In this document: piece by piece, positions 11,232-16,364 of the stretch
Position numbering within the stretch: position 1 is the first letter of the stretch
How the letters are laid out: each line of letters opens with the position of its first letter
Source of the DNA: Candidatus Kapaibacterium sp.
GTDB lineage: Bacteria; Bacteroidota; Ignavibacteria; Kapaibacteriales; UBA2268
Reading direction: 5' to 3'
DNA length: 64,000 nt
Assembly (NCBI GenBank): GCA_963665665.1
Contig: OY762428.1
Location: 4,192,001 to 4,256,000 of the forward strand
Translations under genes and position numbers: made by a program
The notes under the pieces: model-generated
What the model saw: only the letters and a program-made list of their open reading frames with translations
Told to the model about the DNA's origin: nothing
Database searches by the model: none

Positions 11232-12101
11232 TTATTTCATAACATTCAGAAGATCCTTGGACTGTTCCAGAAGTTCTTCGATATCAGAGATCACGAAATC
11301 AATACCGTTGGAGGAAAGTTCGGGGAAACGTTCCGACAGGTACTGCCAAACTTTGCTCTCTTCAATGCTTTCATAGTTCAATCCCTTATAAAAATCTGCA
11401 CCGTGCATTTCACAGATTATTCCTGCCAGGTTCACAATCGCCCCAAGATCTTTATGGTCGCCAAGTTTGTCGGGGTTGTTGTAATAGCTAATTAGTGCGG
11501 CAAGGTCATCAGGAAGTTTCCAGCTTTTGGCAATTTCTTTGCTTACTTCAAGGTGAGTAAGGCCAAATACACTGATTTCGGCTTCAATATCACTTTTTCC
11601 GTTTTCACTTACTTCATCAATTACCTGCAAATAATCTTTTAATTTATACTGGATCATAGCCAATTTACCCATCTGGTAAAGCAATCCCCCAATAAATTCA
11701 GACTCGCTGAAGTTTATTTTCAATTTTTGGGTAATGGATTTTGCAACTATACCGGTACTTGCGGAATGATTCCAGAATTTGTTCATGATTACGGCAGCTT
11801 CTTTTTGTGTGCTAAGCCAGAATTTCGAGAAAATTGATATTCCAAGGACAATATTGGTTAATTTACTAAAGCCAATCATCATTATGGCCTGCTGTATCGA
11901 GGTTATTTCCCTACGGGTGCCGTATAAAGGAGAATTGGCAATCTTAAGTAATTTTAATGTCAGGGATGGGTCTGTTTCAACAATTTTCAGCAGGTCGTGC
12001 ATATTCACATCTTCATTTTCGAGCAGGCTGAGTATTTTAGTTGCAACTGCCGGAAGTGTGGCAAATTCTCTGGTATTAACTATATCATTAACATTGGCCA
12101 T
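11232..12101 (-). CDS. HDOD domain signal-transduction protein
   Basis: TLPAVA, TDPSLTLKLLKIANSPLYG, ITSIQQAI..IG, FWNHS, WKLP motifs. The HD pair appears as YQ (GLLYQMGK). Alternative TTG start at 12116. Confidence 0.9.
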   Translation of the reverse strand: MANVNDIVNTREFATLPAVATKILSLLENEDVNMHDLLKIVETDPSLTLKLLKIANSPLYGTRREITSIQQAIMMIGFSKLTNIVLGISIFSKFWLSTQKEAAVIMNKFWNHSASTGIVAKSITQKLKINFSESEFIGGLLYQMGKLAMIQYKLKDYLQVIDEVSENGKSDIEAEISVFGLTHLEVSKEIAKSWKLPDDLAALISYYNNPDKLGDHKDLGAIVNLAGIICEMHGADFYKGLNYESIEESKVWQYLSERFPELSSNGIDFVISDIEELLEQSKDLLNVMK

Positions 12102-12194
12102 GTCATTAGCATCCAATTTTTAAAAAACTTCATTTGAAAATTTACTTAAACCGGAATTAATATGAAAAAAAATATTGAGATACGCAAAAAGTAA

Positions 12195-12416
12195 TTAAAA
12201 TAATATTAATTTTTTCGTGATTCTATCACCGTCAATGTTGATTACGATGAAATAAACCCCTTTTGGCTGTTCAATTGGCAGTAATGAATTATTTTCATAA
12301 CCGTAAGTAGAATAAACAAGCTGCCCTGTAATATTGTAAACGGCAATTGATTTTACGAAACAATCAGACTTAATGATTATTTTACCGCCGGAAATAACAA
12401 TATCTATTTTCTTATC
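12195..12416 (-). CDS. T9SS C-terminal sorting domain encoded in the -1 frame of the upstream gene, no start codon of its own
   Basis: 73 open codons: DKKIDIVISGGKIIIKSDCFVKSIAVYNITGQLVYSTYGYENNSLLPIEQPKGVYFIVINIDGDRITKKLILF-stop (YNxxGQ, PxGVY, terminal KKLIL). Confidence 0.85.
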   Translation of the reverse strand, partial: DKKIDIVISGGKIIIKSDCFVKSIAVYNITGQLVYSTYGYENNSLLPIEQPKGVYFIVINIDGDRITKKLILF

Positions 12417-13336
12417 TTTTTTTTTACCGATGTTGTTATCCGGGGGTAGTAGTAGAGATGCGGCTTAATGCCAAAGTTTGATTCGCTCAGGGTGTAATAA
12501 CCGCCATTTTTAACATCCCAGCAAACTGCCTCGCCCTGGGGTTCGGGAATGTAGGGCAAAATGGCAGGATCACTAATGAATGCTTCTGCAAGCGGTTCGC
12601 CGGTTTTGCGGGAATAATAATAAATCTGGGCATAATCCTTCAGAATTATTTCGAGTCCGTCGGGGCTGATATCACCTCCCACTACTCCGGAACCTTCGAA
12701 TCCCATGTTGCCAATAGTTAATGTTGCAATATGCAGCAGTTCGTTTTTCTTATCGGTATTTTGCGGGTATTCAGCCACGTAAACCCTAACATTTTCCTCC
12801 CTTTTTGTTACAATGTATATATCTTTTGTCAGAGGGTCTATCATCAGAGTTTCCGCATCGCGGCTGCCGTCGGGATAATCAAGTTTTATTTCATCAATGT
12901 CTTTTAATTTTTTATCAAGCGGTACTTTGTCAAAATCAATGTCTGGTTCTTCAATCCGGTAAACATATATTTTGCCCCTTTTTGCATCATTATCGCCTAT
13001 ATCACCAACATAGATATAAGATTTACCGTCTTCAGGACCCGGGCCAACACAAATATCTTCAAGGTCATCTACATTGATTCCGTCAAGTTCAAATTCACCA
13101 ACAAGGTTTCCGTTGCGGTCAATTGCAAATATTCTGTCCTTATCACCCGAATCATTGTGAGTCCAGAAAATCCCGGGGTACTTTCTGCTTGCAGCCAGGC
13201 CGGAGGCTTCGTCAATTTTACCGGAAGCAAGTAATCCCAGGTCCTGCCTTTGGCCGAATTGGGGAACTTTATCTGATGATTCCGAGATAGATAATATTCC
13301 AAAGAAAATCGTCAATATTGCAAGTATTCTGTTCAT
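12404..13336 (-). CDS. Secreted beta-propeller-like protein (EASGL / WTHNDSGD family); joins the T9SS CTD if frameshifted (about 380 aa)
   Basis: Signal peptide; DEASGLAAS, WTHNDSGD, DLEDI, YVGDIGDN, DAETL, PQGEAV. Ends TTSVKKK at an A9 run. Confidence 0.8.
   Translation of the reverse strand: MNRILAILTIFFGILSISESSDKVPQFGQRQDLGLLASGKIDEASGLAASRKYPGIFWTHNDSGDKDRIFAIDRNGNLVGEFELDGINVDDLEDICVGPGPEDGKSYIYVGDIGDNDAKRGKIYVYRIEEPDIDFDKVPLDKKLKDIDEIKLDYPDGSRDAETLMIDPLTKDIYIVTKREENVRVYVAEYPQNTDKKNELLHIATLTIGNMGFEGSGVVGGDISPDGLEIILKDYAQIYYYSRKTGEPLAEAFISDPAILPYIPEPQGEAVCWDVKNGGYYTLSESNFGIKPHLYYYPRITTSVKKKIRK
12416..12425 (-). other. Slippery site A9G containing an in-frame A-AAA-AAG heptamer
   Basis: Minus strand reads GTA AAA AAA AAG ATA AGA AAA TAG; a -1 shift enters the CTD frame. 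Confidence 0.7.
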
Positions 13337-13459
13337 ATCAATTTCAATTTCTCAAACAAACACAACACAAAATAATGAAAACAATTCGAAATATTAATTA
13401 ATTTTTGATATTTTTGATGTCATTATGTGTGTTAATTTTATTGTTAGTTGGAGTTATTG

Positions 13460-14899
13460 ATGACTGGCAAAATTTATTTTTTCATTGTTTTATTGTTACT
13501 ATCGACAGAAATATTAGCAAACGAGCATCCCTTTTCAATCAGAACCGGAAATATTATTGATTCAACCGAGGCGAAATATTTCTCCTTATTCCGTGATTAT
13601 AAAGGATTTGTAAAAGCAGAAATTATTGCTGATAGCGATGGCAGCAGGAAAATAAATATCGTTTATGAGCATGGTGAAGCAGATAAGACTATCGATCTTA
13701 CACCGGATCAATCAAAGAACCTGAGGCTTTATATCGAAAATTACGAGCTTTACCTGCATGAAGATATCGTTTTTGATAACTCGAAAATTCCGGATGCAAT
13801 ACAATTAGATCAGTCAAAGATCAGGGATTTTATCAACCTGGATTATTTTTTCAGGGATATGCCACCTGTAGAAATTGAATTAATTGACGGTGAAATGATA
13901 GATGATTGCGGATTGGTTGCTATTGTCGGGGATACACTAATACTGGCGAAAGAGAGGAACAGGTACAATTGGAGAGATGTTGAAAATTTCATTCCGATTC
14001 CATTTAATTATGTATTTGAATGTATGGTCGACGGCGTCGTTTACGAACTTCATGCCGAACCCGTGGACAGGAATGAACTTATCGATCATTACTCCGGGCT
14101 TCCCTTTTATGACCATCCGAAAAATGACTTCTCAATACCACCGGAAGTAAAAAACAAAAAGGGTTTGATCATGGCAAATGAGAAAACTCAGGTGATATTT
14201 GAAAGAGATAAATTATTTCCGATCCTTTGGAGGAAAAAGGATCTTTCAGATATTTTTTTTCTCAGTTGCTCATTTCAAATAATTACAAAAGAAGTAGTTT
14301 CGGAGAGTAGATTTGAAGTGGAAGATCAAATTCATGTTAAAAGAATATATCATGTCAGGGAACAAAAGAATAATAAAAATTTACAATCTGCTTTAAATTT
14401 AAATCTCGGATATTTTTTTAATAATCATATATTTCTTTATAGCGGATTAAAATTATTAGTATGTAGCAGCAAAGATGAAGAAGAAACATTCCGTGATAAA
14501 GGATTTTCATTAGCAGTTGGTATCGGATGGCATGATTTGCCGATTATTGACAGAATATATCCTGATCTGAGTTTTGGGATTATTCTTGAATGTGATTACA
14601 ACTTTTACAATTTTTACCACCAATTGTCAAGTCAGGGTGAAAAAACCTGGATACCAGAGCTTGTTTTGATTAAAGAAAAAAATTATCATTATAGCTTTTC
14701 TTTCAAACCTTATAGTAAATATAATTTTTTCGACAATATATCAGTGACTGCCACTTTTGTTTATGAATATCATCCTGTCAGTAATTATAGCACAAGTCAG
14801 TATATTTCCGATAGCCTTTGGCCCTCCTACTGGGAAATGATAAAAGATCAGAAATATTCCGGAATTGGCTTCAGTATTGGGATAGAATATATACTATAA
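13460..14899 (+). CDS. Outer-membrane protein, tandem paralog 1
   Basis: Signal peptide, conserved N-domain (IDSTEAKYFSLF), C-terminal beta-barrel ending GFSIGIEYIL. Confidence 0.75.
   Translation: MTGKIYFFIVLLLLSTEILANEHPFSIRTGNIIDSTEAKYFSLFRDYKGFVKAEIIADSDGSRKINIVYEHGEADKTIDLTPDQSKNLRLYIENYELYLHEDIVFDNSKIPDAIQLDQSKIRDFINLDYFFRDMPPVEIELIDGEMIDDCGLVAIVGDTLILAKERNRYNWRDVENFIPIPFNYVFECMVDGVVYELHAEPVDRNELIDHYSGLPFYDHPKNDFSIPPEVKNKKGLIMANEKTQVIFERDKLFPILWRKKDLSDIFFLSCSFQIITKEVVSESRFEVEDQIHVKRIYHVREQKNNKNLQSALNLNLGYFFNNHIFLYSGLKLLVCSSKDEEETFRDKGFSLAVGIGWHDLPIIDRIYPDLSFGIILECDYNFYNFYHQLSSQGEKTWIPELVLIKEKNYHYSFSFKPYSKYNFFDNISVTATFVYEYHPVSNYSTSQYISDSLWPSYWEMIKDQKYSGIGFSIGIEYIL
13556..13858 (+). repeat. 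303-bp direct repeat, copy 1 (identical to 15015-15317)
   Basis: Base-by-base comparison, constant offset 1459. Confidence 0.9.
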
Positions 14900-14915: not shown

Positions 14916-16364
14916 ATGAGATACACTAAATTATTCGTTTCTATACTAATTATTCTTTTCTTTACTTGTTTTGAATTATTATCAATTGAATTTTCGCAAC
15001 GCACTGGCAACACAATTGATTCAACCGAGGCGAAATATTTCTCCTTATTCCGTGATTATAAAGGATTTGTAAAAGCAGAAATTATTGCTGATAGCGATGG
15101 CAGCAGGAAAATAAATATCGTTTATGAGCATGGTGAAGCAGATAAGACTATCGATCTTACACCGGATCAATCAAAGAACCTGAGGCTTTATATCGAAAAT
15201 TACGAGCTTTACCTGCATGAAGATATCGTTTTTGATAACTCGAAAATTCCGGATGCAATACAATTAGATCAGTCAAAGATCAGGGATTTTATCAACCTGG
15301 ATTATTTTTTCAGGGATCTGCCTGTTATTGAAATTCAACTTATCGACGGTGAAAGTATCGATGATGTTCGATTGGTAGCTGTTTTTAACGAAACACTGAT
15401 ATTAGCTCCGGATAGAGAAAAATATAACTGGCGGGATGTTTCAATATATATTCCTGTTTCATTCAAATATGTATTTGAATGTATGGTCGACGGCTCCGTT
15501 TATGAGCTTTATGCCGAACCCGGGGACAGGAATGAACTTATCGATCATTACTCCGGGCTTCCCTTTTATGACCATCCGAAACATCATATTTCAGTAACTC
15601 CTGATATTACTGTAAACATGAGTACTATTCGAAAAAATGAGGTTAAAGATATTGAATACATGCCTTACAAGGTTGTATCATATAGTAAACCATGGAAAAA
15701 AAGAGAATTAAATGGGATGTTCTTTATTGATTGTTCGTATCAGAAAGTTGCCAAGCAGGTAACTAAGGAACAAAAGTATGATATTGATGATATATTTTTC
15801 GAGGAGAGAGTTTATCATATTAAAGAACTAAAGGATAATAAAAGTAACCAGACTGCTGTAAACCTGGATTTCGGTTATTACCTGACCAATAATATTATTT
15901 TATACACGGGATTAAAATACCTCGCGGCAACTTCTGTTGATGATGAAGAGACATTCGAAGATAAAGGCTGGGCTTTAACACTGGGAACAGGCTGGGACGA
16001 TATTCCTTTCCTTGCTGAACTACAGCGTGATTTATATTTTGGTGTGAAACTAGAGGTTAATTATAATTTCAATACATTTCACCATCAGTTATCCAGCCAG
16101 GGAAAAACAACATGGATACCGGAAATTGTTGAGATCGAAGACGAAAATAATCATATCAGTTATAGTGTAAAGCCTTATGTCAAATATTGTTTTTACGATG
16201 ATTTCTCAGTTTTTGCTGAATACGTATATGAATATCATCCAAACAGTGCTTATAAAACCCGTGACTATATTGCAGATAATCATTGGCCTTCGTATTGGGA
16301 AATGGTTAACGGGCAGAAATATTCAGGAACGGGATTTAGTTTTGGAATATTATATTTATTGTAA
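14916..16364 (+). CDS. Outer-membrane protein, tandem paralog 2
   Basis: Same architecture as paralog 1; GAGG RBS. Confidence 0.75.
   Translation: MRYTKLFVSILIILFFTCFELLSIEFSQRTGNTIDSTEAKYFSLFRDYKGFVKAEIIADSDGSRKINIVYEHGEADKTIDLTPDQSKNLRLYIENYELYLHEDIVFDNSKIPDAIQLDQSKIRDFINLDYFFRDLPVIEIQLIDGESIDDVRLVAVFNETLILAPDREKYNWRDVSIYIPVSFKYVFECMVDGSVYELYAEPGDRNELIDHYSGLPFYDHPKHHISVTPDITVNMSTIRKNEVKDIEYMPYKVVSYSKPWKKRELNGMFFIDCSYQKVAKQVTKEQKYDIDDIFFEERVYHIKELKDNKSNQTAVNLDFGYYLTNNIILYTGLKYLAATSVDDEETFEDKGWALTLGTGWDDIPFLAELQRDLYFGVKLEVNYNFNTFHHQLSSQGKTTWIPEIVEIEDENNHISYSVKPYVKYCFYDDFSVFAEYVYEYHPNSAYKTRDYIADNHWPSYWEMVNGQKYSGTGFSFGILYLL
15015..15317 (+). repeat. 303-bp direct repeat, copy 2
   Basis: Identical to 13556-13858. 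Confidence 0.9.

Follow-up and report, generated by a model that had tools for sequence, protein, structure and literature searches.

A one-base-short poly(A) linker between a secreted beta-propeller and its type IX sorting domain in Candidatus Kapaibacterium, a candidate slippage site with counterparts in three other genera

When the sorting domain of a type IX secretion system (T9SS) cargo protein lies out of frame behind a run of nine adenines, does the gene carry a slippage site that can still attach the tag, or has the tag simply been lost? This question is raised by a locus on the minus strand of a 64,000-nucleotide stretch of the Candidatus Kapaibacterium sp. genome (assembly GCA_963665665.1, contig OY762428.1, positions 4,192,001 to 4,256,000; hereafter the window, with all coordinates counted from its first letter), in which the open reading frame (ORF) of a probably secreted beta-propeller protein stops shortly after a GT-A9-G tract and a sorting domain follows in the -1 frame. 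The features of this gene are as follows:

12404..13336, minus strand: zero-frame ORF of 310 amino acids, comprising a leader, a beta-propeller and the linker TTSVKKKIRK, with the TAG stop at 12404-12406 included
13274..13336, minus strand: probable Sec signal peptide, residues 1-21, MNRILAILTIFFGILSISESS, a hydrophobic N-terminus with a predicted local distance difference test score (pLDDT) below 50 over residues 1-21
12437..13264, minus strand: predicted beta-propeller domain, residues ~25-300, seen in an AlphaFold2 model
12416..12427, minus strand: slippery tract GT-A9-G, with A9 at 12417-12425 and G at 12416, read in the zero frame as GTA AAA AAA AAG
12198..12416, minus strand: T9SS type A C-terminal sorting domain, lying in the -1 frame over 73 codons that begin with the GAT at 12416, with its TAA stop at 12195-12197

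The initial annotation, made from the letters of the window, had placed the end of the protein at the TTSV linker, at the A9G run of 12425-12416, and this was borne out: the translated ORF has the tail ...YYYPRITTSVKKKIRK, closing on VKKKIRK, followed by the stop. It had also described the -1 frame as an intact 73-codon sorting domain with no start codon of its own, and here too the description holds. The 73 residues scored 40.3 bits against TIGR04183 (cut-off 23) and 29.2 bits against PF18962 (cut-off 27), and the 89-codon stop-to-stop frame that contains them has zero ATG, GTG or TTG codons. The domain is not the in-frame C-terminus of the signal-peptide protein; it is joined to the leader-bearing ORF only after a -1 shift, and one added base in the A9 run joins the propeller frame to the intact sorting-domain frame. 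Transcriptional slippage sites include those of Thermus dnaX, Shigella mxiE/spa13 and Citrobacter rodentium tssM1; the run has the length of about nine or more A or T given for this type of site in passages of a review (Atkins et al. 2016, PMC5009743), and the heptamer A_AAA_AAG is present in zero-frame phase within its codons. The SprA translocon is encoded in the same genome (TIGR04189, 956.6 bits against a cut-off of 200), as are 346 ORFs matching a sorting-domain hidden Markov model (HMM) that we built from 40 of the genome's own domains.

We favor, with slightly better than even confidence, the reading that this gene carries an out-of-frame A9 allele of a slippery, mutable poly(A) linker between a secreted propeller and its T9SS tag, and that slippage restores the tag. 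Members of the bacterial family f1, to which this genome belongs, would, on this account, keep the poly(A) tract exactly between the secreted beta-propeller and the sorting domain. Standard decoding of the window gene would yield the 310-aa protein with a signal peptide and no sorting domain, and this untagged form would remain in the periplasm without being passed to the T9SS, while a tagged form of ~380 aa would require molecules in which one A has been regained. The likeliest route to that form would be RNA polymerase slipping on A9, with an unstimulated -1 ribosomal slip on A_AAA_AAG as a possible extra route. Over evolution, replication slippage would add or remove one A, the tag being attached in the A10 state and detached in the A9 state; this has occurred at least twice in the family, and such switching may matter to the cell.

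The A9 tract is real in the DNA of this species. Public contigs of four sequencing runs, aligned over 12000-13500, cover the tract with zero gaps (X1, X3, X4 and X5, from two studies), so that the suggested comparison of A9 with A10 came out as A9 throughout. Over the whole interval the window is matched without a difference by the contigs of X1 (depth 45) and X3 (depth 38), which, because they probably come from the same sample as the genome source, are not independent data. Those of X4 and X5, which belong to the other study and carry another organism label, differ from the window by 22 single-nucleotide polymorphisms (SNPs) in 12273-12812 and by no indel; they therefore represent a second strain with the same A9. 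All 22 of these SNPs fall inside the one 540-base patch, and the remaining 961 compared bases are without a SNP, which suggests a recombination tract spanning A9.

Out-of-frame sorting domains are rare elsewhere in this genome. An open frame shorter than 100 aa was found for only 2 of the 150 TIGR04183 matches scored (from 374 candidates in the genome), the tract gene being one of the two, so the assembly is not generally frameshifted. With our own HMM, about five of the 346 matching ORFs (~1.5%) carry orphan-looking or broken sorting domains. Of 297 ORFs that end in a sorting domain, only two have a long homopolymer in the linker zone: the tract gene and one in-frame gene (C8). A scan for frameshift-like junctions at A/T runs of at least eight listed 10, the tract gene included; the others resemble ordinary gene boundaries at first glance.

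Several loci of the same genome came to attention along the way. All of them lie outside the window. At C1:3386301-3386540 (minus strand), an ORF of 114 aa that resembles a lipoprotein (MKPNKF...LTACPDD...) is followed by an out-of-frame sorting domain, which may make it a second frameshifted T9SS cargo; its junction has no long homopolymer. At C1:2535452-2535631 (plus strand), two in-frame stops precede what is left of a truncated sorting domain (HMM positions 20-76); an A8 run lies just upstream, and the piece looks like a relic. Long G/C homopolymers (G12, C11, G11 and G10) lie at C1:1653494, 2575586, 4859780 and 3191521, and C11 and C12 runs on the coding strand inside sorting-domain ORFs mark candidate phase-variable genes.

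We next considered how the gene is arranged in its relatives. Homologues of the 310-aa protein are abundant (7171 at E <= 0.001 among 8000 scored candidates, the closest 55% identical) and fall into two length classes, one of ~300-335 aa without a sorting domain and one of ~377-420 aa with an in-frame sorting domain. A search of 130 genomes of family f1 returned a match at E <= 1e-40 in 37, and the DNA of the fetched loci was inspected. Fourteen tract-bearing f1 genes could be examined in this way: 10 are in frame and four are shifted, with A9 and the sorting domain in the -1 frame. The four shifted genes, the window gene itself (genome G000) and those at loci L002, L201 and L211, belong to four genera. 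The relatives are as follows:

L002 (genome G009, genus g10): shifted, GT-A9-G, hidden domain scoring 15.0 bits against TIGR04183, under the cut-off of 23
L211 (genome G060, genus g12): shifted, GT-A9-G, hidden domain scoring 29.1 bits against TIGR04183
L201 (genome G098, genus g57): shifted, TCT-A9-GCC, hidden domain scoring 26.6 bits against TIGR04183
L004 and L210 (GT-A10-G) and L220 (A10): in frame, three genes
L202, L206, L215, L219, L222, L223 and L225: in frame with A9, seven genes

The homologue check proposed at the outset shows a recurrent -1 state and a conserved slippery run: three other genera combine an A9 linker with a -1 sorting domain. Each of the four shifted genes corresponds to the in-frame A10 arrangement less one A, and the hidden domains are open over 73-86 codons in all four. 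The closest comparison is provided by two species of the single genus g12, in which L210 (genome G059, A10, in frame) and L211 (A9, shifted) have propellers that are 93% identical and sorting domains that align without a gap when L211 is read in the -1 frame. Because the A9/-1 state occurs in three other related genera, the run looks like a recurrent slippage site; and since sister taxa carry an in-frame A10, the A9 of the window gene is best seen as a one-base-deleted allele of a mutable tract. In genus g57, protein P0006, whose tail is identical to that of the L201 product, shares 89% identity with protein P0007, and in each the stop comes 6 codons past SKKK, so that, to judge from these sequences, the -1 state seems to have outlived the divergence of the two while the L201 domain stayed intact. 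In all, three more short forms end just past KKK (P0007, P0069 and P0112).

A hidden out-of-frame sorting domain was found in 0 of the 17 other fetched f1 genes, those without a linker tract of at least nine A. Among the matches listed, 80 GTDB genome loci showed a -1 sorting domain only in a duplicate of L002 and in L042. The latter, from a GTDB metagenome-assembled genome, is a family gene with a -1 break at GAA GAA AAA AAG TAG (A7; L042:2330-2345) inside the propeller, past which the -1 frame encodes the remaining propeller and the sorting domain. We set L042 aside as a possible assembly error. A class-level scan for the tract-plus-motif pattern matched 3 of 401 genomes, all in f1, and 0 of the 378 outside f1; the same scan of metagenomes gave 108 matching sites, of which one is a family member (L133, in frame). 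A maximum-likelihood tree was built from 32 propeller sequences, omitting L011, the GTDB and metagenome-scan loci, and two rows in which fewer than 230 residues could be aligned (L010 and L215). In this tree L211 is nested in an A10 clade with starred support and the other three shifted genes are left unresolved; the shifted state requires 4 changes, and the starred branches force at least 2.

The composition of the tract is also uneven with respect to codon usage. AAG is absent from the Lys runs of all 14 linkers, while AAA makes up 81% of the Lys codons elsewhere in the genes (177/219); the Val preceding the run is GTA in 7/7 sequences, while GTA makes up 21% of Val codons (38/177). These counts hint at a tract more conserved than codon usage predicts, an argument that is suggestive only because the lineages are related and AAA is already the preferred Lys codon.

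The strongest competitor to the slippage reading is a plain fixed frameshift, in which one A was lost, the tag is unused and decaying, the truncated propeller acts like its tag-less relatives, and any slippage product is noise. We regard this as doubtful. When the two A9 strains are compared, 9.5 synonymous and 2.5 non-synonymous differences fall in the propeller, a ratio of non-synonymous to synonymous rates (omega) of 0.07-0.08. The sorting-domain stretch, read in the -1 frame, carries 10 SNPs, 5 synonymous and 5 non-synonymous (omega 0.28), as compared to an omega of 0.6-0.7 in its other two frames; its proportion of synonymous differences (pS 0.106) equals that of the adjacent propeller, and the second strain's 10 SNPs leave the -1 frame free of stops. 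When the observed mutation spectrum was simulated 20000 times, at least 5 synonymous changes arose at a frequency of 0.045 and no stop at a frequency of 0.67, the former value (p 0.045) resting on 10 SNPs within a single patch of 540 bases, possibly a recombination tract. The comparison of L210 with L211 points the other way, with an omega of 0.84 for the sorting domain vs 0.064 for the propeller, where in-frame control pairs gave sorting-domain values of 0.13-0.65 (9 computable pairs; 9 further pairs were saturated). Set beside these controls, the L210/L211 value fits a decaying tag in the shifted lineage, and the evidence for continued use of the hidden domain is, on these substitution patterns, mixed.

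Other observations divide in a similar manner. The frequency of the -1 state, 4 of 14 tract genes in four genera, lies far above the ~1.5% background of broken domains in the genome, and speaks against simple decay; so do four hidden domains that are still open over their full 73-86 codons, the low omega between the two A9 strains, and a -1 state common to two genomes with 89% identical proteins, with the domain intact in the one whose DNA was examined. An A9 run is, moreover, expected to slip in transcription whether selected or not (passages of PMC5009743). Conversely, a fixed loss would agree with the presence of a few other broken or orphan sorting domains in the genome (~5/346), with the equal tract length in both strains, and with a family in which the tag-less form is evidently viable, at 283-348 aa in about half of the 120 homologues listed.

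Several of these points, and some others, weigh against the slippage reading and are best stated together. A9 is present in both strains of the species and no variation in tract length was seen within it; the contigs, however, show the majority sequence, in which a minority of A10 cells would be invisible. With about half of the listed homologues naturally without a sorting domain, loss of the tag may simply be tolerated. The low omega of the hidden domain depends on few and possibly recombined SNPs, the g12 species pair resembles decay, and the purity of the tract is suggestive only, for the reasons given above. The hidden domain of L002 falls below the TIGR04183 cut-off, as noted, and some in-frame relatives also score low (12.6-18.8 bits, own HMM). 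L002, L211 and L201 all come from metagenome-assembled genomes, and the contig check covers the window gene. Finally, the two isoforms and their ratio are what we infer from the DNA.

A stronger version of the slippage reading would make the poly(A) linker an evolved dosing device for T9SS cargo, with a pure homopolymer kept family-wide, transcription always giving a mix of exported and periplasmic protein, and heritable A9/A10 switching setting the dominant form. We hold this version to be possible but tentative. An adaptive switch and a tolerated, recurrent lesion both remain candidate readings of the locus.

A second alternative concerns how a tagged product would be made. The initial annotation had put forward a classic dnaX-like heptamer, at which a programmed -1 ribosomal frameshift on A_AAA_AAG would set a fixed ratio of the two forms; we consider this improbable. 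Three of the 4 shifted lineages do have the heptamer in zero-frame phase, and a stop comes 4-12 codons later; the shifted cases are all -1 and none +1, and A_AAA_AAG is the most shift-prone heptamer tested in Escherichia coli, where passages of the same review link its shiftiness to a sole tRNA-Lys that pairs weakly with AAG (PMC5009743). In L201, however, the sequence reads TCT AAA AAA AAA GCC, that is, A_AAA_AAA followed by G in another phase, without the heptamer. The 83 nt downstream of the tract fold no better than shuffled sequences in any of the four shifted lineages (z -0.94, +0.09, -1.43 and -0.76), and the folds differ between them; the weak TTATTT/AAATAA stem once noted downstream of the window tract accordingly could not be distinguished from shuffles (z -0.94). 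Inspection by eye of the four lineages found no shared Shine-Dalgarno (SD)-like element upstream of the tract. ARAGORN detected both tRNA-Lys(UUU) and tRNA-Lys(CUU) in the genome, and the review connects the presence of the latter with AAG being paired more tightly and with the use of polymerase slippage: in Thermus, which has two lysine tRNAs, the polymerase slips on the A9 run of dnaX instead (PMC5009743). The in-frame A10 of sister taxa likewise speaks against a programmed site. Beside the three other genera with the -1 arrangement stand the 10 tract-bearing relatives that are in frame.

Since only the homopolymer is shared, no fold is significant and tRNA-Lys(CUU) is present, homopolymer slippage is favored over a dnaX-like event. 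Bacterial runs of 9 A or T are reported to yield transcripts with extra bases (PMC5009743, in part). We thus rank slippage on the homopolymer as most likely, with RNA polymerase as its agent in the cell and replication over evolution; an unstimulated -1 ribosomal slip is a possible minor contributor, and a dnaX-like programmed frameshift is unlikely. Of the original proposal that a slippery site decides whether the tag is attached, the general idea survives, with an A9 that is real and recurs in three other genera, and the dnaX-like ribosomal mechanism is not supported.

The last alternative, a sequencing or assembly error in the homopolymer with a true in-frame A10 gene, is hardly credible: homopolymers are a classic site of error and X1 and X3 may be the genome's own source data, but separate assemblies of four runs show the tract with zero gaps, the tract is unchanged in X4 and X5, which belong to another study and to a strain with 22 SNPs, and only 2 of 150 scored sorting-domain matches have short open frames.

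As for the protein itself, its N-terminus probably acts as a Sec leader, as judged from hydrophobicity and low pLDDT, and is not of the lipoprotein type because no Cys is present. The AlphaFold2 model of the 310-aa protein (mean pLDDT 86.5) is nearly all beta, with a single short helix (H249-252). Foldseek returned generic propellers for this model, the top match being the C-terminal domain of E. coli YjiK (3qqz, TMq 0.51). The 310-aa part had no Pfam or NCBIfam match, and a sequence-profile search of the PDB with the propeller gave no convincing match (best E 0.024). The genome is a single 5.46-Mb contig. Downstream of the gene, on the same strand, lies an HDOD-domain gene with an M14 peptidase gene beyond it, and a terminator and promoter scan of 11900-13600 found no terminator-like site on the gene's strand. 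Upstream, on the opposite strand, are two tandem paralogues without a Pfam match (13448-14899, plus strand, 483 aa; 14916-16364, plus strand, 482 aa), whose first ~110 residues past the leader are near-identical, suggesting recent duplication or gene conversion.

Whether a T9SS cargo protein is tagged is assumed to be fixed by the structure of its gene; in the present case exportability would hang on a single base of a slippery run, at a site that has changed state more than once among related genera. If the two forms are really made, the localization of a protein would be tunable or switchable without a regulator, and gene callers would systematically mis-annotate such cargo as short 'hypothetical proteins'. 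If the linker does act as a dosing device, it would be the first known case of a T9SS sorting signal under a recoding or contingency switch, and it would be found in free-living environmental bacteria rather than pathogens. Among the papers listed by a literature search, none links T9SS sorting domains to homopolymer switching. Mechanisms of this class are already known; the literature searched contained no case of one applied to a T9SS sorting signal and recurring over four genera.

In the endosymbionts Buchnera and Blochmannia, genes broken at poly-A tracts still give some full-length product through transcript heterogeneity, in degenerating genomes with many such genes. The present case differs in being one gene in a 5.46-Mb free-living genome in which such breaks are rare. 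Passages of the review cited above (PMC5009743) name both endosymbionts as cases in which polymerase infidelity rescues frameshifts at poly(A) tracts. In 3' homopolymer phase variation, as described in parts of studies of Helicobacter canadensis (PMC2823697) and Neisseria gonorrhoeae (PMC5320596), the C-terminus is altered and the gene is not switched off, as would be the case here; those tracts are mostly poly-G/C and vary at the strain level in host-associated pathogens, whereas the present tract is poly-A, lies in an environmental bacterium and varies between species but not between the two strains compared. E. coli dnaX has the heptamer, in identical phase, of 3 of the 4 shifted lineages (PMC5009743); the present locus differs in that neither a stimulatory hairpin nor an SD-like element was found, the genome has a second lysine tRNA, and the heptamer is absent in the fourth lineage. 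Thermus thermophilus dnaX is closer, with an A9 run, separate tRNAs for AAA and AAG, and two products differing at the C-terminus; there, however, the long form is the zero frame and slippage makes the short one, whereas here the DNA encodes the short form (PMC5009743, in part).

A further parallel is offered by tssM1 of Citrobacter rodentium, as presented in parts of its description (Gueguen et al. 2014, PMC4256274), in which an A11 run before a premature stop still allows ~20-25% full-length protein via transcriptional slippage, and by tssM3 of Yersinia pseudotuberculosis, its in-frame tract counterpart. There, as here, a poly-A tract before a premature stop detaches the C-terminal domain of a secretion-related protein, and a related species carries the tract in frame, so that the ratio of forms is inverted in that species and slippage restores the full length in the other (PMC4256274). 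The two cases differ in that tssM1 and tssM3 encode a part of the type VI secretion machine, with an A11 tract and measured slippage in tssM1 (PMC4256274), whereas the present tract, A9 or A10 and known from DNA, would govern the sorting signal of a T9SS cargo.

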